Of a DNA stretch of 49,202 nucleotides, positions 30,129-47,154 are shown one piece after another. This DNA is from Spirochaetales bacterium. Its GTDB lineage: Bacteria; Spirochaetota; Spirochaetia; SZUA-6; JAFGRV01. Location: the NCBI GenBank assembly GCA_016934975.1, contig JAFGRV010000402.1, positions 1 to 49,202 on the forward strand, given 5' to 3'. Made by a program: the position numbers and the translations under genes. Each line of letters begins with the position of its first letter. Position 1 is the first letter of the stretch. Under the pieces are notes generated by a model. The model had not been told where the DNA came from. It did no database searches and saw nothing but the letters and a program-made list of their open reading frames with translations.

Positions 30129-32075
30129 CTATTGTAAAGACGCCAATTCGTTCAATTCCTCTTCAATCTTTTCCCACCGGGCGAGGAACTCCTCATATTC
30201 ATGTTGTTTTACCCGTATTTTTTCCTTCACTTCTTTTACTTTTTCACCGTCCGTATATATTGATTCCTCCGAAAGAAGGAGTTCCAGCGCCTCAATTTCT
30301 TTCTGTGCAGTCTCCGATCGATGCAGCACCATTTCCTCCTCTTCTTTAAGGTTTTTTAGTCTGTTTTTCCGCTTTTTATCTTCTTCATGGGTGATGGTAC
30401 TCTTTTTTATTTCTTTCGGTTTTAATTCCTCTGCCCCTGATGTAGTATCTCCTTCTCCTTTTTCCATCTCTGCTCTTCTGTAAAGATAATATTCATAGTC
30501 CCCGTAATAAAGCCGCCCATTCCCTTCCCGCAATTCAAGAACTTTTGTCGCAAGGCTTTGAATAAAATAGCGGTCATGAGAAACAAAAATCAGGGTCGCC
30601 GAGTAGTTTTTAAGGGCATCGAGAAGAATATTTTTTGATACCATATCAAGATGATTTGTCGGCTCATCCAGCAGAAGGAGATTCGCGGGGTGCATAAGGA
30701 GCTTAAGAAGAAGAATCCTGCTTTTTTCCCCGCCGCTTAAGACCGAGATCGATTTATGGATATCATCTCCTGTAAAAAGAAAGGACCCGAGGAGATTCCG
30801 GAGATGGGGAATCAGGGGTGTCGGGGCCAGGGATTCAAACTCTTCTATTATACTTAAGGTTGATGGTGTTTCTTCTATCTGGTCCTGTGAAAAATAACCG
30901 GTGGATACATTTTTACCATGGACAACGGATCCCGAATCCGGGGTCTCCAGACCGGATAATATCCGCATGAGGGTGGATTTTCCGGCACCATTAGGACCGG
31001 CAAGGACAAGTCGTTCACCCCGGGTGATGGTGAGATTGATATTATTAAGTGCCTGGATATTTCCGTACGACTTATTTACATCTTTTACTTCAAGAACAAT
31101 ATCCCCGGATCGCGGGGGGGGTAAAAACGAAAAATGAATTGACCGGGAGCCCGGGGGTTTTTCCAGGAGCTCCATATTTTTCAGGTATTGAATTCTGCTC
31201 TGAACCAGCTTGGCCTTGGAAGAATTATATCTGAACCGCTTGATAAAGAGCTCCACCTTTGCGATCTCATCCTGCTGTTGATTATAGGCATCCATGGCCC
31301 GTGCCATCTGTTCGGTCATCTTCTTCTCATACTCGGAATAATTTCCCGTATAAAACGATACTTTCCGTAAATAGATTTCCGCGATCCGGTTTACCGTGGT
31401 ATCGAGAAAAAACCGGTCATGGGAAACAATCAGGATTCCCCCGGTATATGAGACGAGGTAATCTTCAAGCCATGTCCGTGCTTCGATGTCGAGATAATTT
31501 GTCGGTTCATCCAGAAGCATGATATCGGGGCGTTCCAGGAGAACTTTTGCCAGGGCTATCCTCATCTGCCATCCGCTGGAAAATTGATTAATCGGTTTTA
31601 TAAAATCTTTTTCAGAAAATCCAAGACCTGTCAGTACTTTATGGATAATGGCATCCCGTGTATAGTAATTACTTTGCATGATTCTTTCATGCAGATAATT
31701 ATAATGTTCAAGCAAAAGAGCGGTTTCAGGTGTTTCTTTTACACTGGTCCCGAGTTTTTCCTCGCACGCTTTCATTTCTTCTATAACCGGGTTCATTTCA
31801 TCAAAGGCTTTTTCCGCCCCGGCCCGGACTGATATGTCGGGAAATGAAATCCCGGACTGGGGAAGATATGATACCCTGGTATCCTTTCCAATGGTCACCT
31901 TCCCGCTGTCAGGTTTGATTTCACCGGCGATAATCCTCATGAGAGTAGATTTCCCGCTTCCATTCGCGCCGGAAAGTGCTATCCGGTCACCTGTTGAAAT
32001 CGAGAAGTTTACCTCTTCAAGGAGTTGCCTGGGGCCAAAGGAAATTGAAATACCTGCAAGATGTACGGAAGACAT
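30129..32075 (-). CDS. ABC-F family ATPase
   Basis: Two ABC domains (GANGSGKST, GPNGAGKST, LDEPTN twice), no TM segments and a C-terminal coiled coil. Confidence 0.93.
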   Translation of the reverse strand: MSSVHLAGISISFGPRQLLEEVNFSISTGDRIALSGANGSGKSTLMRIIAGEIKPDSGKVTIGKDTRVSYLPQSGISFPDISVRAGAEKAFDEMNPVIEEMKACEEKLGTSVKETPETALLLEHYNYLHERIMQSNYYTRDAIIHKVLTGLGFSEKDFIKPINQFSSGWQMRIALAKVLLERPDIMLLDEPTNYLDIEARTWLEDYLVSYTGGILIVSHDRFFLDTTVNRIAEIYLRKVSFYTGNYSEYEKKMTEQMARAMDAYNQQQDEIAKVELFIKRFRYNSSKAKLVQSRIQYLKNMELLEKPPGSRSIHFSFLPPPRSGDIVLEVKDVNKSYGNIQALNNINLTITRGERLVLAGPNGAGKSTLMRILSGLETPDSGSVVHGKNVSTGYFSQDQIEETPSTLSIIEEFESLAPTPLIPHLRNLLGSFLFTGDDIHKSISVLSGGEKSRILLLKLLMHPANLLLLDEPTNHLDMVSKNILLDALKNYSATLIFVSHDRYFIQSLATKVLELREGNGRLYYGDYEYYLYRRAEMEKGEGDTTSGAEELKPKEIKKSTITHEEDKKRKNRLKNLKEEEEMVLHRSETAQKEIEALELLLSEESIYTDGEKVKEVKEKIRVKQHEYEEFLARWEKIEEELNELASLQ

Positions 32076-36839: not shown

Positions 36840-37505
36840 TTAAACACAGGTTTTACAGCCATTATTTACAAAGACTTCTATCGCCTTAATCGCTTTTTCC
36901 GCATCCTTCCCGGTGGCGATAAACTCCAGAGCCTCACCTTTGCATGCGGCAAGGGTAAGAATCCCGAGAACTGATTTTACATTCATGTATTTCTTCCCAT
37001 TAAGAATAAAATTGTAATGCTCCATGCCATCTTTATGCACATAGACATCACAATCAAACTTACTGGTGAGGGTTGCAAGGGTTGATGAGGGCCTCATATG
37101 CAAACCTTTCGCATTTTGAACGACAGTTTGTGTTGATAAAAATCCGTTTTCCTGCAAGGATTCTTTTTCCTGTCTCCAGATATGAGCATAAATACCCATC
37201 CATTCTTCCGCGGCATCATTCTCACTTAATGTATATCCCGCCTCCTGAGACCTTGTCTGCATATATTTTTTTATCTCTTCGAGCTGCTCGTAATTCTCTT
37301 TCTTCTGCTTTTCCTTAATCCAGGTATCTTTATAATGGCTTACAAAATCCTTGATCGCATCTTCTATGCTTACTTCCTGTCCCTGCTTTTGTGACATGAA
37401 ATATTTATGATCCTCGATCGCTTTAAGTTCCGCCGGAGAAAGATCAATTTCTTTAATAGTACTAAACAACTTGCTACCTCCCCACAGGTCTACAACATTT
37501 TCCAT
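36840..37505 (-). CDS. HPr phosphocarrier fused to a duplicated DUF4032-like N-terminal region
   Basis: C-terminal GLHMRPS and NVKSVLGILTL. N-terminal repeats IEDHKYFMSQ..G.EVS..DAI.DF and IKKYM..RSQ..GY.LS..DAA.EW. Confidence 0.8.
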   Translation of the reverse strand: MENVVDLWGGSKLFSTIKEIDLSPAELKAIEDHKYFMSQKQGQEVSIEDAIKDFVSHYKDTWIKEKQKKENYEQLEEIKKYMQTRSQEAGYTLSENDAAEEWMGIYAHIWRQEKESLQENGFLSTQTVVQNAKGLHMRPSSTLATLTSKFDCDVYVHKDGMEHYNFILNGKKYMNVKSVLGILTLAACKGEALEFIATGKDAEKAIKAIEVFVNNGCKTCV

Positions 37506-37854: not shown

Positions 37855-39393
37855 ATGAAAGCAGTTATTGTTATTCCGCCACTCCATGATTTCTATTTTA
37901 CACCCCACAGATTTTCCGGTTTAGGCCCCTTAAGCCTTGCCCGGATACTAAAAGATCAGAAAATTGATATCGAGTACATAAATCTCCCCCTTTTACATAA
38001 AAAAGGAACAAGGATCGGGATTCCATCACTACTTTCCTACCTCACTCCTTACGTTCTCCGGAATGAAACCGGGAAGCTCTCTTTTTTTACCCAGTATCAT
38101 CATTACGGACCGGGTTTTAGGGACTCCGCGGCTCTCATCACTTCGAAACACCCCTCTCTGGTCTTTATTTCATGTTTTGCTTTCTGTTACGGAGATCAAA
38201 CCCTGAGCTTATGCACGGAAATAAAGAAAAGAAATCCCGGACTTCCGGTGATTGTTGGCGGTCCGGGGGTGAGTGTCTATCCGGAGTATTTTTTACAGGA
38301 TACAAACATAGATTTCATTCTTACAGGAGATGCGGAGGTAAGCGTTCCCTTGTTTATAAAAGCTTTTTGTCACAAGGAAATTCCTTTTTCAGATGTACCA
38401 AATCTCATCCGGCAGGAAAACCGGCACATTTCCTCTAGCGGGATCAAAAAAAAGGGCAAAAGTGAGGAATTACTCTTCACATGGGCAGCCACAGCCGAAA
38501 CGAAAAAGAAGCTATATATCTCCACAAGTCTTATGAGAGGATGTACAAAAAAATGCCGTTTTTGCACTCATTGGGCGGAAAATGAAGTGAGAACAATTCC
38601 TGAAAAAAATATTATTTCGGGAATCGAAGATATAAAAAAAGAAACAGCAGGTAAAGAAAAAGAGATTTCACTCATTTTTGAGGATGATAATCTTCTTCTA
38701 AAACCGGATTATTTCTTTACAATATTATCACATTTTAAAAAACAACTTTCCATGAACTCTTTTTTTGTTGAACCCGGAATTGATTATACCCTTCTTACCC
38801 CTGAATTATTAAAAAAACTCATTCATTGTGGTCTTAAAAGAATCAACATCTCTCTCGGATCCACAAATACCGCGATACTTACCGCGGAAAAACGAACTTT
38901 TAACCTTTCATTGTATGAAAAGTTAATGACTATACTTAAAGAAAAAAACATCCCATCAATTACCTACTTTATTTGCGGATTTATCGGGGATACAAAAGAA
39001 ATTGTGGCTCAAAATCTTGCATATATTTCACAAAAACCGACACTCTGCGGAATCTCTTTGTTTTATCCCGTACCCGGTCTTCCGGATTTTCAGGATTATT
39101 CCCTGTTTCCCACCGGATCTTCCAATAAATGCGCCGGATCATCAGCATATCCATGGAATAATTCTCTTTCTACGGAAACACTTGTCACGGCGTTCCGGCT
39201 CAGCAGATACGGTAATTTCCTCAAGCAAGACCCGTCAACCATAGGTGAGGAAGAGCTGCTTGCTATCATAAAGAAGAATAAACAATTGCATACCATAATA
39301 AAAGAAAAAAATAAAAAACGAATTATCAGGGTTCCGAATACGGACAGGGAACTTGAGTATCTTTATTTTAATTTCATGGGAAAAAGCACGTAA
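37855..39393 (+). CDS. Cobalamin-binding radical SAM protein
   Basis: B12-binding region (VIVGGPGVS, GDAE), RGCTKKCRFC and FEDDN. Confidence 0.85.
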   Translation: MKAVIVIPPLHDFYFTPHRFSGLGPLSLARILKDQKIDIEYINLPLLHKKGTRIGIPSLLSYLTPYVLRNETGKLSFFTQYHHYGPGFRDSAALITSKHPSLVFISCFAFCYGDQTLSLCTEIKKRNPGLPVIVGGPGVSVYPEYFLQDTNIDFILTGDAEVSVPLFIKAFCHKEIPFSDVPNLIRQENRHISSSGIKKKGKSEELLFTWAATAETKKKLYISTSLMRGCTKKCRFCTHWAENEVRTIPEKNIISGIEDIKKETAGKEKEISLIFEDDNLLLKPDYFFTILSHFKKQLSMNSFFVEPGIDYTLLTPELLKKLIHCGLKRINISLGSTNTAILTAEKRTFNLSLYEKLMTILKEKNIPSITYFICGFIGDTKEIVAQNLAYISQKPTLCGISLFYPVPGLPDFQDYSLFPTGSSNKCAGSSAYPWNNSLSTETLVTAFRLSRYGNFLKQDPSTIGEEELLAIIKKNKQLHTIIKEKNKKRIIRVPNTDRELEYLYFNFMGKST

Positions 39394-39639: not shown

Positions 39640-39744
39640 ATGTATACTCATTTCCTGCAATCTGAAAATTATTCGATATTTTTCAGGGACATCACATGCA
39701 GGTTATTACCAATAAGAAATCAAATTAAAATAAGGAGAATCTAA
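39640..39744 (+). CDS. Putative 34-aa leader/uORF coupled to the first operon gene
   Basis: AAGGAG SD; MYTHFLQSENYSIFFRDITCRLLPIRNQIKIRRI; TAATG overlap at 39742-39746. Confidence 0.35.
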   Translation: MYTHFLQSENYSIFFRDITCRLLPIRNQIKIRRI

Positions 39745-41426
39745 TGAGAAAACAATTATTTTTAATATTTATTTTATTTCTGCTTATACCCATCATCCTT
39801 TCAGGTCAGACACTGGATCCTTTCAGCTCCAGGATTAAAATATCCCCCCAAAACTACAAATCGAGTTCCTGGCTCAGGGTTCCCCTTATCACCTGGGGTG
39901 CGGACATCGTCACTATTCAGGCAAATGGGGGGAAAACGAAAACAACATCAGGCTCTCCCTTCGATAAACAGGGGCTTAAAGTTGAAATTTTCAGGGAAGA
40001 TAATTTCCAGAAACAAGTAGAAATGTATTTAAAGGGGGAGATTGTTTTTTTACGGGGAACCATGGGGATGATTAATATGGCGGCAGATGTAACGGAAAAG
40101 AACAATAAAACAAAACAGGTTGTCATTTATCAGCATTCCTGGTCTGCCGGTGGGGATGCCCTGGTGGTAAAAGCGGGAATTCGAAGCATAAAGGACTTAA
40201 AAGGTAAGACAATCGCGATTCAAAGCTACGGCCCGCATGTGGATTATATGATGAAACTGTTAAGTGACGCAAACCTCTCTATCGGTGATGTCACTATTTT
40301 GTGGACAAAAGATCTTGTCGGTCCCGAAGGCGATACTCCCATGGCCAAATTTTATAAAAGTAATGTCCAGGCGGCATTTCTTATTACCCCCGATGCCCTT
40401 GCACTTTCATCGGACGGAACAGTCGGTACCGGCGCAGAGGATTCGGTGAAAGGGGCTAAAATCCTGCTCTCTACAAAAACGGCAAACCGGGTTATCAGTG
40501 ATGTCTATTCGGTGAGAAAGGATTTTTTTGACGCGAATAAGGACAAGGTCATGAAATTTGTCCATGCCCTCTTTATCGCGGAAGAAGAAGTAAGAGATAT
40601 TTTTAAGGATTCCAAGAACGCGGCATATAGAAATCTGATGACCAACGGAGGAACGATTTTATTGGACAGTGCGTCGGCGGGAGCAGATGTTGCTGGGTTA
40701 TACTATGATGCGGAACTCACCGGATTTAACGGGAATGTGAAATACTTTAAAGATACGACATACCCGAGAAATTTTACAAAACATACCGCTGAAATTCAGA
40801 AATCCTTTATCCAGTTAAAACTCTTAAGCAAATCAATAACTCTCAGTCAGGCGAACTGGAATTATACCGATTTCAAGAGCGGCCTGAAATATGCCGATGT
40901 AAAAGAGGCCTCCAAGTTTGATTCGGATCAGGTAACGGAAGTAATCGCAAAAAAACAGATGCAGGATACCCTGGATGAATCGGCTCTCTTTTCCTTTATG
41001 ATCTTTTTTAAACCGAATCAGAATACCTTTTCCGTCGACTTATACCAGAAGGAGTTTGACAAGGTAATTGAACTTTCCGCAACATACGGAGGGGCAATTA
41101 TTACCGTGGAAGGTCATTCCGATCCCATGGAATACTTGCGTAAAAAGAAACAAGGAGCACAACCTGTCGTCCTTAACCAGATAAAACAAGCGGCTAAGAA
41201 TTTAAGCTATTCACGGGCAAATGCCGTACGGGATGAAATAATCGGATATGCATCCCATCAGGGTATTACCCTGGATCCAAACCAATTTGCATCTATCGGA
41301 TATGGTATAACCAAACCATTGTATGAAAGTCCGAAAACCGAGGAACAGTGGTTATCTAATATGAGGGTAGAGTTTAAGTTAATCCAGGTAGAAGCAGAAT
41401 CGGACGTTTTTGTTCCGCTTGATTAA
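39744..41426 (+). CDS. Exported NMT1/SsuA-like solute-binding domain fused to an OmpA-like peptidoglycan-binding domain
   Basis: Signal peptide; SAGGDALVV and DLKGKTIA; C-terminal VEGHSD...NLSYSRANAV...GYG...NMRVEF. Confidence 0.85.
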   Translation: MRKQLFLIFILFLLIPIILSGQTLDPFSSRIKISPQNYKSSSWLRVPLITWGADIVTIQANGGKTKTTSGSPFDKQGLKVEIFREDNFQKQVEMYLKGEIVFLRGTMGMINMAADVTEKNNKTKQVVIYQHSWSAGGDALVVKAGIRSIKDLKGKTIAIQSYGPHVDYMMKLLSDANLSIGDVTILWTKDLVGPEGDTPMAKFYKSNVQAAFLITPDALALSSDGTVGTGAEDSVKGAKILLSTKTANRVISDVYSVRKDFFDANKDKVMKFVHALFIAEEEVRDIFKDSKNAAYRNLMTNGGTILLDSASAGADVAGLYYDAELTGFNGNVKYFKDTTYPRNFTKHTAEIQKSFIQLKLLSKSITLSQANWNYTDFKSGLKYADVKEASKFDSDQVTEVIAKKQMQDTLDESALFSFMIFFKPNQNTFSVDLYQKEFDKVIELSATYGGAIITVEGHSDPMEYLRKKKQGAQPVVLNQIKQAAKNLSYSRANAVRDEIIGYASHQGITLDPNQFASIGYGITKPLYESPKTEEQWLSNMRVEFKLIQVEAESDVFVPLD

Positions 41427-41445
41427 AGAAAGGAAGGGGTAAACT

Positions 41446-42210
41446 ATGAATAAAAATTCCGGAGGTATTGTTTTTCTTATTATCATTGGTATTATTGGAT
41501 TCATCATTATAAGTATTATTTTAGAAGAAAATGATGCAAATAATGTGAGTGTCACCACACCCTATGATACGGACGTGACGGAAACAGAGGCAACCCAGAC
41601 AGGATGGCCCCCTGGTATCGATAATCCGAACATGGAACTTGCGGAGAATAAACTGAAAAAGAACTACTATCTTATCCTTGACGGCTCGGGGAGTATGAGC
41701 GGGGAAAAAATGAAAACCGCGAAAAAGGCTTTAAGCAGGTTTATCAACCTTGTCCCGGATGACGCGAACATCGGGTTGGCGGTTTTTGATTCCGGAGGAC
41801 TTTCCGAGAGAGCGCCCCTTGGATCATCAAAGGAACAGCTCGTGAACCAGATACAGAGAGTTAATGCCAGCGGATACACTCCCCTGGAAAGTTCTTTAGC
41901 CCTGGCGTATAAACAGATAAATAAACAGGCTGCCCGGCAGTTGGGATACGGGGAGTATAATATTGTCGTTGTGACAGACGGTGAAGCGAGTGACGGAGAA
42001 GAACCGGGCCCTATTGTGAATGAAATATTACGTGAAAGCCCGGTGGTTATTCATACCATCGGATTTCAAATCGGGGAACAGCACTCCCTGAATCAACCCG
42101 GGAGAATTCTCTATAAATCGGCAAATAATCTTGAGGAACTGAGCGCCGGCCTTGGAGACGTCCTTGCGGAGATGGAAGATTTCAGTGTTACGGAATTTGA
42201 TGGAAATTGA
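41446..42210 (+). CDS. Membrane-anchored vWA domain protein
   Basis: N-terminal TM helix; MIDAS DGSGS, GYTPL, VVTDG and HTIGF. Confidence 0.9.
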   Translation: MNKNSGGIVFLIIIGIIGFIIISIILEENDANNVSVTTPYDTDVTETEATQTGWPPGIDNPNMELAENKLKKNYYLILDGSGSMSGEKMKTAKKALSRFINLVPDDANIGLAVFDSGGLSERAPLGSSKEQLVNQIQRVNASGYTPLESSLALAYKQINKQAARQLGYGEYNIVVVTDGEASDGEEPGPIVNEILRESPVVIHTIGFQIGEQHSLNQPGRILYKSANNLEELSAGLGDVLAEMEDFSVTEFDGN

Positions 42211-42252
42211 TCCTGGAGTTTCGATTGTTTTTTGTTACTGTTCAGGTTTTTT

Positions 42253-42340
42253 GAAACCGCAGATGCACACGAATACACGCAAATATGAGGATCTATACTG
42301 TTTTTCTTATCTGCGTTCATCTGCGTGAATGTGCGGTTCC
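42253..42340. repeat. REP-like inverted repeat built from decamer units
   Basis: aaccgcagatgcacacgaatacacgcaaat ... atctgcgttcatctgcgtgaatgtgcggtt. Confidence 0.75.
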
Positions 42341-42395
42341 ATTTCCGAAGCTGAATGGATACAATTTTTTTTATAAATGAATATAAGGATTTAAT

Positions 42396-43949
42396 ATGAG
42401 TAAACATGCTATTGTGGCGATTATTATTGTCATTGTCGGGATATTGGGAATTTTTATTTTTAAACTTGCTATTCCACTGATTGAAAAACAGTTTACCTAC
42501 GGAACCTCGGATGCAAAAAATGTAAAGGGTGAAGTTACGATTGCAGTTGATAGCTGGATCGGATATTTCCCTTTACAATCCCCTGTTTTTAAAAAACTCA
42601 TGAGGGATAATGAGTACAAAGTAACGATTATTGATGATGAAGCAAATTACCCGTTACGGATGGAACGGTTAAAAAAAGATGAGATTGATTTCGCGGTCTG
42701 CACCATCGATTCATATCTTTTAAACGGGAAATCCGAGGATTTCCCGGGGACAATTGTCGCAGTGATTGATGAATCCAAGGGCGGCGATGCCATGGTCGCA
42801 TGGAAAGACAAGATCGACAGCATCGACAAATTAAAAACCCTCACGGATTATAAAATCGCCTTTACCACCGCTTCCCCATCGGAACATCTCCTGAAAGCCA
42901 TCGGCGTTCACTTTGGGATTGACAACCTTCTTGATAAAAAGGGAAAGTGGCGGGTGGAAACAGCCGGTGCCGGGCAGGCATATAAAAAGCTGATGAAAAA
43001 AGATGTGGATATTGCGGTGATTTGGGAGCCCCATGTCACGGAGAGTCTATCAAATCCCGCTATTGTAAAATTATTGGGAACGGAAGATACGGAAAAACTG
43101 ATTGTTGATATTCTCCTGGTAAACCGTCCGTTCAGTAAAGCAAAACCGGATATCACAAAGCTTGTGGTAGAAAAATTTTATGAAACCTTAAAGATTTATG
43201 AAGATGACCCTGCCCTGCTCAAGGAAGATCTTAAGCGCCATACGAAAATGAAAGAGGATAAAATAGACTCGATGCTGAAAGGAGTCCGGTGGGTAAACCT
43301 CCAGGAAAACGCTTTATGGTTCGGCCTCGATAAAAGCAGCACAAGCTACCGGGAAGAACTTCCTTTATCAATCGATTCGACCATAGAAATTCTTGTGGGA
43401 AACAAAGATTTTGATATGAATCCCCTTCCCAACAAAGATCCTTACACGATCATTAATTCATCATTCCTGGAACAAATTTATCTTTCCGGATTAGTGGCTG
43501 CCGATCCTCAGGCGACGGATTACGCAAACTCCCTGGAAAAACCCTTTTCCGCACTCACCGCCGAGCAATGGGATAAACTCAAAGTCGTCGGATCTCTTAA
43601 GCTCAGACCCATCACTTTCAGCAGCGGGACTTCGGATCTTGATGAAATGGGCGAAATGCAGCTGGATGTTATCGTAGAGAATATCAAGCATTACCCGAAT
43701 TTTAGAATTGTCGTGAAAGGCCATTCGGGCACCCGGGGAGACGATCAGGCAAACCTCCGGCTTTCCCAGGAACGGGCGGATGCCGTGAAAGCCTATATGA
43801 TACGTTATTATAATATTTCGGAAAACCGGATCAGGGCGATAGGACGGGGGAATACCGAACCCCTTGCCCGGCAGCCGGATGAATCGAGCAGGTCCTATGA
43901 AGACCGGCTTAAACGAGTGGAAATATACCTGGTCTCCGCGCGTCTTTAG
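42396..43949 (+). CDS. Membrane-anchored NMT1-like solute-binding domain fused to an OmpA-like domain
   Basis: N-terminal TM helix; WIGY, DESKGGDAMV and WEP; C-terminal KGHSG.RGD..ANL.LSQERA.AV...RVEI. Confidence 0.87.
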   Translation: MSKHAIVAIIIVIVGILGIFIFKLAIPLIEKQFTYGTSDAKNVKGEVTIAVDSWIGYFPLQSPVFKKLMRDNEYKVTIIDDEANYPLRMERLKKDEIDFAVCTIDSYLLNGKSEDFPGTIVAVIDESKGGDAMVAWKDKIDSIDKLKTLTDYKIAFTTASPSEHLLKAIGVHFGIDNLLDKKGKWRVETAGAGQAYKKLMKKDVDIAVIWEPHVTESLSNPAIVKLLGTEDTEKLIVDILLVNRPFSKAKPDITKLVVEKFYETLKIYEDDPALLKEDLKRHTKMKEDKIDSMLKGVRWVNLQENALWFGLDKSSTSYREELPLSIDSTIEILVGNKDFDMNPLPNKDPYTIINSSFLEQIYLSGLVAADPQATDYANSLEKPFSALTAEQWDKLKVVGSLKLRPITFSSGTSDLDEMGEMQLDVIVENIKHYPNFRIVVKGHSGTRGDDQANLRLSQERADAVKAYMIRYYNISENRIRAIGRGNTEPLARQPDESSRSYEDRLKRVEIYLVSARL

Positions 43950-43961
43950 GAGTGATATAAG

Positions 43962-44810
43962 ATGGAAAAAAATAAGAGTCTCATGAAGATTGATTTTTCT
44001 CAGGCAGCGATACAAAAAGCGGTCCGTGCAAAAATTATTCAGAATCCCGTGTCAGTATACACTACGGCCTTCGGTACGGTGGGAGTCATTGCTTCGTCTA
44101 TTCTCTTTCCCAGTCTGTTGCTTACTATTTGTTCTGCCGGACTCATCAGCTTCGGAATTATCAGCGGTATTGTTAATTTCGCCGCAAGAAAAAGCATATT
44201 TGAGACAAAACATCTTGCGTACTTAAATACGCTTATTGATAAAGAAAAACAGATGGTCCTTAAGCGGCTGCAGCGGGAATTAAAAAAACTCTCCGCATCC
44301 AAAGAGCTAAAAGTATTTTCGAATCAGGCGGTCAGGCAGTATGAAAAAATACAGACAAAGTTTGATAATTTCAAACGAATCCTCTCGGAAAAATTTGATA
44401 CATCGGAGATAAGCTATGGAAGATTTTTCGGTACAACCGAGCAGCTTTACCTTTCCGTACTGGACAATCTGGAGGATATCATGAACTCCCTCGGGACGAT
44501 CAGCAATATTGATGACGGATATATAAACGAACGTCTCACCTATCTCGCAAGTCTTGAATCACCGGAAGAAGCGGATAAAAGAGAAAAGGAGACGCTCCTC
44601 ACCCGGAAAGATTTAAAGGAAAAAACCCTCATACGGGTGAATGAGCTGCTGACAATAAATGAAGAAGCCATGACTCAGATCGATCTGTCTATGGCCACAA
44701 TCTCGCAGATTAAAACAAAAATGGGGCGGGCCTCCATTGATATGGAAGTTGCGCGGAAAGACCTTGAGGAGCTCATTAATAGAACAAAGAATTATTCCAT
44801 AAGTAAGTAA
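43962..44810 (+). CDS. Two-TM coiled-coil protein, XpaC-like partner of TelA
   Basis: Two N-terminal TM helices and a long helical cytoplasmic region, directly upstream of telA. Confidence 0.6.
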   Translation: MEKNKSLMKIDFSQAAIQKAVRAKIIQNPVSVYTTAFGTVGVIASSILFPSLLLTICSAGLISFGIISGIVNFAARKSIFETKHLAYLNTLIDKEKQMVLKRLQRELKKLSASKELKVFSNQAVRQYEKIQTKFDNFKRILSEKFDTSEISYGRFFGTTEQLYLSVLDNLEDIMNSLGTISNIDDGYINERLTYLASLESPEEADKREKETLLTRKDLKEKTLIRVNELLTINEEAMTQIDLSMATISQIKTKMGRASIDMEVARKDLEELINRTKNYSISK

Positions 44811-44894
44811 AAGAAGTAAAAGAGAGAACATGGTTCTTCATGAACCAGGACATAAATTTTCAAGAGATTTAAAATGCAACGAGGAGGCAATATT

Positions 44895-46094
44895 ATGGCA
44901 GAATATCAGCTGGCAACCCTTCCGGATACGAAAACCCTTAAAAAAGAAATGGGGATTGGAACAGGGGAGCTCGTCACAGTTGAGAGCAAAACTGTTCAGG
45001 TTCTGGATAAAGAAGCGGATGATTTTGTGGATAACCTTATCAACCTCTCTATGGATAAGGTTGATGATCAGGAAATCAGGAAACTCTCTGTAGAAAATAT
45101 CGGCATGAAAGTTCAGAAAGATGCTGCTGCCAAAAGTCAGATGCTTCAGAGGCCGATAAAAGAACTCTCCACACGGAGTGAAGACGGCGGTGAGGTTGCG
45201 AATGCCCTTATCGATCTGAAGATGCAGGTGGAGGCCCTTGATCCCGGAAAATTTGATTTCGGCAAACCCGGGTGGTTTACCAGAATGGTGGGAAATCTTC
45301 CTTTTATAGGGAGCACCCTCAAGCGCTATTTCAGCCGGTATGAAAAATCCCAGACGATTATAAATGCCATCATCAATTCCCTTAAAAACGGGAAAGAACG
45401 ACTTACCCGGGATAATATGATGCTTGTGGAAGATCAGAAAGCCATGCGGGAAATGACGATCCGACTGGAAAAAGCGGTGAAACTCGGTCAGCTTATCGAT
45501 GCAAAACTACAGTATAAACTGGAACGGGAAATCGAACCGGATGATCCCAAGCACAAATTCGTAAGCGACGAGCTGATCTTTCCCCTGCGCCAGAGAATCA
45601 TGGATTTGCAGCAGCAGCTTGCCGTGAATCAGCAGGGAGTACTTGCCATTGAAATTATTCGAAGGAACAATAAGGAACTTATCCGGGGTGTGGACAGGGC
45701 GGTAAATGTAACGGTAAATGCCCTCCAGGTCGCGGTCACCGTGGCACTTGCTTTGAATAATCAACGTATCGTACTGGATAAGATTAATGCGGTGAATATT
45801 ACCACATCAAACCTTATCGCCTCCACGGCGCGGCAGCTTAAAGAACAGGGCGCGGATATTCAAAAACAGGCATCCGAGAGCATGCTCAGCGTCGAGGCGC
45901 TCAAATCGGCCTTCAGTGATATCAGTACTGCCATGGATGAAATTTCAAAATACAGGCAGGATGCCCTTCCCAAAATGGCCCAAACAATAATCGAATTTGA
46001 TGATCTTTTGGGCAAAGGTGAAGCACGAATAAAAGACCTCGAAAAAGGGAATAAGACCAATCCTGCTTTTACCTTAAGTGTGGATAAGGAATAA
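44895..46094 (+). CDS. telA: Toxic anion resistance protein (TelA/KlaA/YaaN family)
   Basis: L..LDP...YFSRYEKSQ..IN.I, RQRIMDLQQQLAV..QG and NNKELIRGV.RA; GGAGG SD before MAEYQL. Confidence 0.9.
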   Translation: MAEYQLATLPDTKTLKKEMGIGTGELVTVESKTVQVLDKEADDFVDNLINLSMDKVDDQEIRKLSVENIGMKVQKDAAAKSQMLQRPIKELSTRSEDGGEVANALIDLKMQVEALDPGKFDFGKPGWFTRMVGNLPFIGSTLKRYFSRYEKSQTIINAIINSLKNGKERLTRDNMMLVEDQKAMREMTIRLEKAVKLGQLIDAKLQYKLEREIEPDDPKHKFVSDELIFPLRQRIMDLQQQLAVNQQGVLAIEIIRRNNKELIRGVDRAVNVTVNALQVAVTVALALNNQRIVLDKINAVNITTSNLIASTARQLKEQGADIQKQASESMLSVEALKSAFSDISTAMDEISKYRQDALPKMAQTIIEFDDLLGKGEARIKDLEKGNKTNPAFTLSVDKE

Positions 46095-46149: not shown

Positions 46150-47154
46150 ATGGAAAATAAACTCTCGAAAATTATTCAAAAACGAACGGAAGATTCACAG
46201 AAAACATACTCTTTTAAAGAAGATCATAATCCGAGGATGCCGGCAGACTATTGGTTTCAGACATCTACTGAAGGACCTGTCCTCTTCCTGGTGTTTTTTA
46301 CCCAGGCCTGTAGATGGGCCAAATGTCTCGGATGCAACCTTCCTTCCAAGGTAACCCTGTCGCATATCGGATTCAGGGATATTATGAAGCAGACAAATTT
46401 CATCTTCATGAATCTTTTAAGCGACAGGCAGAAAATGAACTTGCGGAAAATTATTCTCTCCAACAATGGATCTGTTCTGGACGAGGAAACACTTTCCACC
46501 ACTGCCCTTCTTTATTTTATCGCCAGGATGAATATGGATTGTCCCAATATCAAAGTACTTACCATAGAAACGAGGCCGGAATATGTGGATCCGGCGGAAC
46601 TGGAGACGATCTACCGGGCGATCCGGGAAGGAGAAACTCCCACGGACCTGGAAATCGCCATCGGCTTCGAAGCCTTTGACGAAAAGATCCGGAATGAACA
46701 TTTTAAAAAAGGTCTTACCCTGGAAGTATTTGAAAAACTCGCGGAGATGCTCTCACGCTACAAATACAGGCTTAAAACCTACTTTATGCTCAAACCGGTT
46801 CCCGGTCTTTCCGAAGACGATGCCATAGCCGATATCGCGGCGGGAATACGCTACCTGGACTCAATCTCGGCAAAATACAATCTTGATATAAACATGCATC
46901 TGAACCCGACGTACGCGGCGATCGGCACACCTCTCGCAGACGCCTTCCACAATGGGACCTTTGTGCCCCCGACCCTCCAAAGCGTAAAAAAGGCCATAGC
47001 AGCAGCCGAGGGGACCCGGATATCGATCTTTGCCGGTTTAAACGACGAGGATCTCGCTGTTCCCGGGAGATCATTTATCCGGCCGGGAGACGAGGGTCTT
47101 ATCGATGTGATAGAACAATTTAACCGCACCCAGGATTTTACGTTGCTGCAATAA
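46150..47154 (+). CDS. Radical SAM protein of the RaSEA/TIGR01210-like (Elp3-related) type
   Basis: CRWAKCLGC, GSVLDE, ETRPEY, EIAIGFE...IRN...KG, KTYFMLKP and LNPT. Confidence 0.75.
   Translation: MENKLSKIIQKRTEDSQKTYSFKEDHNPRMPADYWFQTSTEGPVLFLVFFTQACRWAKCLGCNLPSKVTLSHIGFRDIMKQTNFIFMNLLSDRQKMNLRKIILSNNGSVLDEETLSTTALLYFIARMNMDCPNIKVLTIETRPEYVDPAELETIYRAIREGETPTDLEIAIGFEAFDEKIRNEHFKKGLTLEVFEKLAEMLSRYKYRLKTYFMLKPVPGLSEDDAIADIAAGIRYLDSISAKYNLDINMHLNPTYAAIGTPLADAFHNGTFVPPTLQSVKKAIAAAEGTRISIFAGLNDEDLAVPGRSFIRPGDEGLIDVIEQFNRTQDFTLLQ

Follow-up and report, generated by a model that had tools for sequence, protein, structure and literature searches.

A TelA-associated envelope gene cluster with tethered binding proteins in a Spirochaetales genome and its importer on a second contig

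We analysed a stretch of 49,202 nucleotides from a Spirochaetales bacterium (GenBank assembly GCA_016934975.1, contig JAFGRV010000402.1, positions 1 to 49,202 of the forward strand; hereafter the window), in which five co-oriented genes of the plus strand, g1 to g5, fill positions 39744-46094, each of them an open reading frame (ORF). They encode two proteins that join a solute-binding domain to an OmpA-like domain (g1 and g3), a von Willebrand factor type A (vWA) protein (g2), a helical protein (g4) and TelA (g5), and are followed by a radical S-adenosylmethionine (SAM) gene, g6. With modest confidence, we read g1-g6 as the front part of a conserved envelope cluster of eight to nine genes, the back part of which is an ATP-binding cassette (ABC) importer of the NitT/TauT type, and in which an envelope scaffold is coupled to TelA. 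The initial annotation of this DNA had named the same five genes with the same types of domain and had reported no ABC permease or ATPase beside them; all five were confirmed at the same coordinates, as was the absence, for the window. Its description of the module as transporter-less did not hold up, both because homologous operons usually carry ABC genes and because cognate ABC genes lie elsewhere in this genome, as laid out below.

Cassette and importer in related loci and in this genome

The scan for related loci covered one genome per species in 185,579 species and gave 257 pattern matches, 241 of them with a relative, from which the best 80 loci were examined. By tblastn with the window proteins, 47 of these loci hold g1-g5 in order, five hold g1-g4 and 19 hold g1-g3, with shorter pieces cut by contig ends in the other nine, and by ORF clustering g1 lies upstream of g2-g3 in 69 of the 80. 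The recurrent g1-g2-g3(-g4-g5) order is far beyond chance. Locus counts were taken from tblastn matches with at least 70% query coverage, because the longest-frame ORF caller gave spurious antisense ORFs in G+C-rich loci. According to their database labels, the cassette loci come from at least eight phyla (Spirochaetota, Pseudomonadota, Thermodesulfobacteriota, Elusimicrobiota, Nitrospirota, Verrucomicrobiota, Bacillota, here Halanaerobiales, and Bdellovibrionota), together with a few bins labelled as candidate phyla, and g3 has 993 homologues at E <= 0.001.

Beside the cassette, ORF clustering and Pfam identified three further conserved genes, coding for an NMT1-type binding protein of about 345 amino acids (aa), a BPD_transp_1 permease and an ABC_tran ATPase. 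In loci flanked by 4 kb or more on each side of the cassette, permease and ATPase stand next to the cassette in 35 out of 43, and over all 80 loci both are present in 47 and at least one in 53, which is what contradicts the transporter-less description at the level of the family. The free binding proteins pass the TIGR03427 model (&#39;putative urea ABC transporter substrate-binding protein&#39;) in four out of four cases tested, with 484-508 bits against a cut-off of 333.9, and for the cassette-linked permease and ATPase the top-scoring models are those of TauC and TauB.

Within the 49-kb window there is neither a permease nor an ABC ATPase of the kind linked to the cassette, and no importer remnant was found, even at E <= 0.01. 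Searching the whole genome by tblastn with the cassette-linked trios brought out one matching importer trio, located on another contig, C578, with proteins 34-45% identical to their cassette-linked counterparts. For its ATPase the alignment extends over about 295 residues, with 41-45% identity, compared with about 200 residues for other ABC ATPases of this genome, and in a quick maximum-likelihood tree the C578 ATPase groups with 34 cassette-linked ATPases (Shimodaira-Hasegawa-like approximate likelihood ratio test, SH-aLRT, 99). The binding protein of the trio is circularly permuted, positions 98-288 of TIGR03427 preceding positions 3-98 within one ORF, and tblastn agrees with this order. The permuted form also occurs at two further loci (Table 1), and 12 database proteins that are 71-94% identical cover 81-100% of its length, 11 of them at least 94%; more distant database matches cover 52-62% only.

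Co-occurrence was followed in 31 genomes, the source genome and 30 relatives. A g3 homologue and a binding protein of the C578 type are found in the same five genomes (G000, G011, G012, G018 and G035), and both are absent from the other 26. In G012, which belongs to the same family but a different genus, a contig of 43,423 bp carries the contiguous order g1-g2-g3-g4-g5-g6-binding protein-permease-ATPase on one strand, followed by a gene for a 474-aa protein, with g6 placed between TelA and the binding-protein gene of the importer. The cluster proteins of G012 are 64-78% identical to those of the source genome, and on C578 the trio is likewise followed by this 474-aa gene. In G011, from the same genus as the source genome, the two halves are again found on two contigs. 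Since the cluster is contiguous in G012 and distributed over two contigs in both the source genome and G011, it is split after g6 in this genus (two draft genomes), and because other genes lie upstream of the C578 binding protein and downstream of g6, the split is more than a contig break.

The makeup of the cluster is not uniform: g1-g2-g3 form its most constant part, and g4-g5, the importer and a classical AAA ATPase are variable. The latter (PF00004, about 490-550 aa) was found in 20 of the 80 loci, and the window lacks it. The sixth gene, g6, is related to TIGR01210 (E 5.9e-31; 107.9 bits, under the cut-off of 212), and a gene of its type adjoins the cassette in eight of the 80 loci, from four phyla.

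Table 1 Coordinates of the cassette, of the importer on contig C578 and of other features mentioned in the text.
Feature	Location	Strand	Description
g1	39744..41426	+	560 aa, NitT/TauT-type binding-protein domain and divergent OmpA-like domain
g2	41446..42210	+	254 aa, N-terminally membrane-anchored periplasmic vWA protein, complete MIDAS
g2-g3 gap	42211-42395		185 bp, short inverted repeat inside
g3	42396..43949	+	517 aa, inner-membrane-anchored binding-protein domain and OmpA-like peptidoglycan-binding domain
g4	43962..44810	+	282 aa, putative two-TM hairpin and cytoplasmic helical bundle of about 200 aa, orphan family
g5	44874..46094	+	406 aa, TelA-family protein, divergent subfamily
g6	46150..47154	+	RaSEA-like (TIGR01210-related) radical SAM protein, cluster member in this lineage
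Importer binding protein	C578 4270-5316		found by tblastn with cassette-linked trios
Importer permease	C578 5374-6234		found by tblastn with cassette-linked trios
Importer ATPase	C578 6244-7155		found by tblastn with cassette-linked trios
Circularly permuted binding protein	L084 5310-6296	-	further occurrence
Circularly permuted binding protein	L086 3591-4646		further occurrence
Classical AAA ATPase	L036:5842-7320; L066:5956-7617		examples; upstream of g1 or between g3 and g4
True XpaC	L010:11544-12149	-	example; loci L005-L017, L019 and L020; opposite strand in 13/15
Plasmid copy of the cluster	L082, NZ_AP019851.1, 5517-14292		Vibrio alfacsensis pSEA2
ABC ATPase-like ORF	30129-32075	-	648 aa, two ABC ATPase-like domains
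HPr-domain protein	36840-37505	-	221 aa, PF00381 at residues 124-214
B12-binding radical SAM protein	37855-39393	+	PF02310 and PF04055

A full copy of the cluster was also seen on pSEA2, a mobilizable plasmid of 306 kb from Vibrio alfacsensis. The first part of its annotation reads ABC ATPase, &#39;nitrate ABC transporter substrate-binding protein&#39;, VWA and &#39;phosphate ABC transporter substrate-binding/OmpA family protein&#39;, and then follow a hypothetical protein, &#39;toxic anion resistance protein&#39;, &#39;putative urea ABC transporter substrate-binding protein&#39; and a permease. Homologues of g3, 37.6-38.1% identical, are present in five further Vibrio plasmid records. In addition, cultured, non-pathogenic bacteria of marine origin carry the cluster, for example Zooshikella, with the isolate genomes L029, L038 and L037, the last from Zooshikella ganghwensis DSM 15267.

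Tethered binding proteins, their pocket and the vWA protein

The first tethered protein, g1, begins with a signal-peptide-like segment without a lipobox cysteine and matches the NMT1/THI5 family PF09084 with 34.3 bits (cut-off 20.5), and the second, g3, begins with a transmembrane (TM) segment and is related to the SsuA_fam model TIGR01728 (E 3.6e-11, below the cut-off) and to TIGR03427 (26.2 bits, E 4.1e-6, below the cut-off of 333.9). That both are fusions of a binding protein with an OmpA domain, as first annotated, is well supported for g3, which reaches 65.7 bits against OmpA PF00691 (cut-off 27.2) and whose profile matches solved OmpA-like domains with E values down to 3e-19. The OmpA match of g1 itself stays under the same cut-off with 21.5 bits, but its family recovers the domain in 27 of 29 members, next to NMT1 in 28 of 29 (E <= 0.01; best OmpA E 3.4e-6), and the OmpA-like motif columns GHSDP and N-S-R are invariant or nearly so.

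Between them, g2 encodes a protein with a single N-terminal TM or hydrophobic segment, likewise without a lipobox cysteine, that matches VWA PF00092 at E 1.2e-15. The anchored vWA protein with an intact metal-ion-dependent adhesion site (MIDAS, DxSxS...T...D) that had been described from the sequence was borne out, its five residues D79, S81, S83, T145 and D178 being invariant in 58 out of 58 family members. In 16 out of 57 g2 homologues, a lipobox-like N-terminus replaces the N-terminus of the g2 type. The gap between g2 and g3 measures 185 bp in the window and contains a short inverted repeat; in the relatives inspected, no more than about 40 bp separate the end of the g2 match from the start of g3, or the two overlap.

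Investigating the binding-protein domain with a profile that is dominated by the free binding proteins, we found TauA, SsuA and an NrtA-like protein as the closest solved relatives (E 3e-8 to 3e-7). The free binding protein and the tethered domains of g1 and g3 are paralogues. A member of this family with a reported ligand is GimA of Synechocystis, annotated as a NitT/TauT-family sulfonate-binding protein, for which PMC12704784 reports guanidine binding with a dissociation constant (KD) of 97 nM and a site modelled by docking that consists of W59, W62, F205, D135 and D233. Subtracting 25 from these numbers, which is residue-number arithmetic in place of a GimA alignment, would place the site at W34, W37, W180, D111 (one residue off) and D208 of a cassette-linked binding protein. 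The D111 and D208 columns hold aspartate in all 40 free proteins, all 64 g3 and all 52 g1 sequences. The W180 column is tryptophan in 39 of 40 free proteins and 64 of 64 g3 sequences and isoleucine in 51 of 52 g1 sequences, and the W34 column is tryptophan in 39 of 40 free proteins, tyrosine in 64 of 64 g3 and aspartate in 52 of 52 g1 sequences. Because the aspartate columns are invariant and the aromatic columns differ, the three paralogues appear to have an acidic pocket in common and probably differ in specificity.

These columns also bear on the idea that the proteins are a structural tether of the envelope, of the Pal or MotB-plug kind, in which the binding-protein folds would be degenerate, ligand-free spacers. 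The presence of two OmpA-like domains, including one on a protein anchored in the inner membrane, and the loss of most aromatic pocket residues in g1 would fit such a tether. We nevertheless consider it very unlikely, as two pocket aspartate columns are invariant across 156 sequences from three paralogue groups and the linkage to a binding-protein-dependent importer is conserved.

Another use of the same pocket would be that of a periplasmic sponge: a toxic cationic solute would be bound up by the wall-tethered proteins and then removed by the importer, to be degraded in the cytoplasm, with TelA and g4 shielding the inner membrane. That three binding-protein paralogues conserve acidic residues in the pocket is compatible with this, as are the ties of TelA to toxic agents acting on the envelope and the toxicity of guanidine above 5 mM reported for Synechocystis (PMC12704784). 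However, among the annotated conserved neighbour clusters there is no catabolic gene, neither a urea or guanidine carboxylase nor a guanidine hydrolase, and no guanidine riboswitch turned up in the window or in seven related loci, which leaves the sponge distinctly unlikely in our view. Lower still do we rate an anti-phage defence system, which the weak ZorB/MotB match of g3 might suggest and which we regard as extremely improbable: PADLOC returned no system-specific match, the ZorB match reflects the shared OmpA-like domain only, three of the five cassette proteins have no PADLOC match at all and that of g4 is marginal, and the neighbouring genes are housekeeping or metabolic.

TelA and the helical protein encoded before it

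The product of g5 matches TelA PF05816 with 247.1 bits (cut-off 30) over profile positions 14-330 of 332 and no other protein of the genome matches TelA; five other spirochaete genomes carry unlinked TelA genes, which reach 381-405 bits against the same model. An AlphaFold2 model of the protein has a mean predicted local distance difference test (pLDDT) score of 62.5, a Foldseek search with it against the PDB gave nothing at E <= 0.001, with generic long helical hairpins only, and a sequence search with the TelA profile turned up no relative of solved structure (best E 0.11). To our knowledge, no mechanism has been established for TelA. In Firmicutes, XpaC is thought to hold TelA at the membrane. 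A predicted complex of TelA with residues 80-282 of g4 scored 0.01 against a mark of 0.32, which speaks neither for nor against binding. In Enterococcus faecium, deletion of xpaC alters daptomycin binding only if telA is intact, according to PMC6811118, and for a Listeria telA mutant PMC12791056 reports a 4-fold increase in nisin sensitivity; these xpaC-telA genetics and the nisin phenotype support a possible role of the g4-TelA half in membrane stress.

The gene directly before TelA, g4, ends 63 bp upstream of it. Its AlphaFold2 model is all-helical with a mean pLDDT of 87.5 and shows helices at residues 29-48 and 52-75 followed by a helical bundle, and the two helices may well form a TM hairpin, judging by the sequence. 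The protein had been described as XpaC-like. This is right for its architecture and its position beside TelA; relatedness to XpaC failed every sequence test applied. No family was found for g4 in Pfam and NCBIfam, PF10112 (XpaC, Halogen_Hydrol) gave no match at E <= 1, and in a scan of 34 members of the family at E <= 0.1, PF10112 was absent from the best 25 of 53 families, among which there was also no Snf7 or PspA family. Aligning the g4 alignment to 12 true XpaC proteins with hhalign resulted in a probability of 8% over 9 columns. A profile search in 1.84 billion representatives placed 1460 representative clusters in the g4 family at E <= 0.001, and no bridge from g4 to XpaC was seen among the best 150 of these 1460 matches. 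By these sequence comparisons, g4 is not XpaC.

Structural comparison did not supply a relative either. Foldseek with the g4 model found nothing at E <= 0.001, the top hit being a CdvB2 filament at E 0.05 with a template-modelling score of 0.14-0.19, and in a wide search with VIA-align the best Z was 13.5, for designed helical repeats, a value within the noise for helical models, and the best 50 matches included no ESCRT-III, PspA or XpaC-like entry. The closest ESM Atlas clusters consist of hypothetical proteins without a name; the nearest named protein is Rv2743c at 0.85, a lead that has no Pfam support. Together, g4 is an analogue of XpaC, or a relative too remote to be detected, that occupies the XpaC position, and not a demonstrable member of the family.

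The genomic context of the related loci supports this placing of g4. In 15 spirochaete loci that consist of g1-g3 without g4-g5, a true XpaC (PF10112, E 5e-25) directly follows g3 (Table 1), and five of these genomes encode a canonical TelA away from the cassette locus.

Proposed working, local context and known systems

Taking the domain assignments together, the following picture can be proposed. Both g1, which would be free in the periplasm, and g3, which would be anchored in the inner membrane, would be held on the peptidoglycan by their OmpA-like domains, g3 thereby bridging inner membrane and peptidoglycan, and g2 would be periplasmic and sit on the inner membrane. As the binding-protein domains of g1 and g3 keep the two acidic pocket residues of the importer binding protein, they could form, with the metal-dependent g2, a periplasmic scaffold acting together with the importer, which would catch or sense a small nitrogen compound, probably a cation, from the guanidine/urea class. 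At the other face, g4, with both ends in the cytoplasm, may hold the cytoplasmic TelA at the membrane in the manner of XpaC in Firmicutes, and solute uptake or sensing would thereby be tied to membrane protection. The data show which genes the cluster contains, how they are conserved, that they are linked to an importer and where the cognate importer lies; the class of the ligand, every contact between the proteins and the role in stress are inferred. A more specific version, a new kind of trans-envelope system in which the wall-tethered binding proteins and the MIDAS-bearing vWA protein report the state of a periplasmic solute or of the wall through the two-TM adaptor to TelA as a membrane-protecting assembly at the cytoplasmic face, with the importer as input or reset arm, is one that we put forward tentatively and would not expect to be true in this form.

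Several observations weigh against the cluster-plus-importer reading and should be set beside the evidence for it. In the ATPase tree, the C578 ATPase falls outside the clade formed by the 34 cassette-linked ATPases (SH-aLRT 91), where its neighbour is a long-branched ATPase of its own genome from contig C32, and the C578 binding protein scores 152 and 86 bits in its two permuted pieces, under the TIGR03427 cut-off of 333.9. The source genome is a draft, 87% complete and in 665 contigs. Concerning the ligand, g1 has lost the aromatic cage (isoleucine at the W180 and aspartate at the W34 column), the step from GimA to the cassette pocket is arithmetic on residue numbers, and the Rfam scans found no family in the window, guanidine riboswitch included, and tRNA only, with no riboswitch, in seven related loci. 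Moreover, no importer is nearby in eight out of 43 well-flanked loci. Five genomes without a neighbouring trio were inspected, of which three encode an above-cut-off TIGR03427 protein elsewhere, in one case 14 kb away on the same contig, and two have no protein that passes (one with a 142-bit match, one with none). Because of these eight loci and these two genomes, the core cassette may work without an importer.

This last point leads to the model proposed with the initial annotation, a self-sufficient trans-envelope machine for sensing or stress in which the tethered domains act as sensors only and the importer is a separable add-on. Beyond the loci and genomes just mentioned, it draws support from the constancy of g1-g2-g3 next to the variable g4-g5, importer and AAA ATPase, and from the physical separation of the halves in two genomes of this genus. 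It is opposed by the importer in 35 of the 43 well-flanked loci, by the joint presence in five and joint absence in 26 genomes, by the contiguous, single-strand cluster of the sister genus, and by the free binding protein being a paralogue of the tethered domains with common invariant pocket residues, and we consider it unlikely. The domain reading on which that model was built is confirmed and an assembly across the envelope stays plausible; its statement that the system is one for stress, toxin or phage response rather than for uptake runs against the importer linkage and the trio on C578.

Around the cluster, some further features were observed. The sole ATPase-like matches in the window are the two domains of a 648-aa ORF on the minus strand, about 29% identical to the cassette-linked ATPases, which is possibly an ABC-F-type protein outside the cluster. 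Directly upstream of the cassette, co-oriented with it and separated by a 350-bp gap, lies a gene for a B12-binding radical SAM protein, which by tblastn is present in none of the 80 related loci. The 221-aa protein with an HPr domain has an N-terminal extension of about 120 aa before that domain without a clear family. A promoter and terminator scan gave 22 promoter-like sites in the window against 19.2 expected and is uninformative.

The cluster can be compared with three known systems. The XpaC-TelA (YaaN) pair of Firmicutes, as in E. faecium xpaC-telA and Listeria monocytogenes lmo1966-lmo1967, likewise has TelA directly after a small protein in which two TM segments at the N-terminus precede a helical cytoplasmic domain, has been connected with stress of the cell envelope, and has its true XpaC in the position of g4 in the 15 related loci. 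It differs in that g4 has no detectable sequence relation to XpaC and that the pair shares its cluster here, in diderms, with an ABC importer, a vWA protein and tethered binding proteins. Importers of the NitT/TauT type (TauABC, SsuABC, GimABC; TIGR03427) resemble the back part of the cluster, whose free binding proteins pass TIGR03427 and have TauA, SsuA and NrtA-like proteins as nearest solved relatives, whereas the present cluster adds two binding-protein paralogues fused to OmpA-like domains, and further the vWA protein, g4 and TelA, shows neither riboswitch nor catabolic genes in what was searched, and has a circularly permuted free binding protein in this lineage. Finally, the main text of Ravi et al. 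2024 (mSystems, PMC11237479) describes operons of PspA or TM-anchored Snf7, AAA+, ABC ATPase and permease, and PBPB+OmpA, and suggests a link between membrane remodelling and solute transport. The loci share with these operons PBPB+OmpA, the ABC ATPase and permease, a helical protein anchored in the membrane and, in 20 of the 80, a classical AAA ATPase, but TelA and vWA have 0 occurrences each in that main text, g4 has no Pfam Snf7 match and resembles CdvB2 only at the low score given above, and the window lacks an AAA ATPase. Our literature search, which for Ravi et al. covered the main text, found no paper that joins TelA with these cluster partners. The cluster is widespread, experimentally unstudied and of a computationally known kind; a survey of TelA gene neighbourhoods was reportedly published by Anantharaman, Iyer and Aravind in 2012 in Mol Biosyst. 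New here are the lineage-specific split, the circularly permuted binding protein of the cognate importer and the embedded RaSEA-like radical SAM gene.

In conclusion, TelA is a widespread protein with an influence on how well cells tolerate tellurite, nisin and daptomycin, and this study places one TelA subfamily in a fixed partnership with a two-TM adaptor, two wall-tethered binding proteins, a metal-dependent adhesion domain and an ABC importer from a guanidine/urea-type family. The partnership, found across at least eight phyla, gives TelA concrete partners that can be tested and a candidate class of ligand, and carriers of the cultured, non-pathogenic marine kind, such as Zooshikella, make genetics feasible. 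The example of this genus further illustrates that an operon that locally appears transporter-less can be the artefact of a lineage-specific split. If the reading in which sensing is passed on to TelA is true, it would provide TelA with a defined set of partners and a defined signal.

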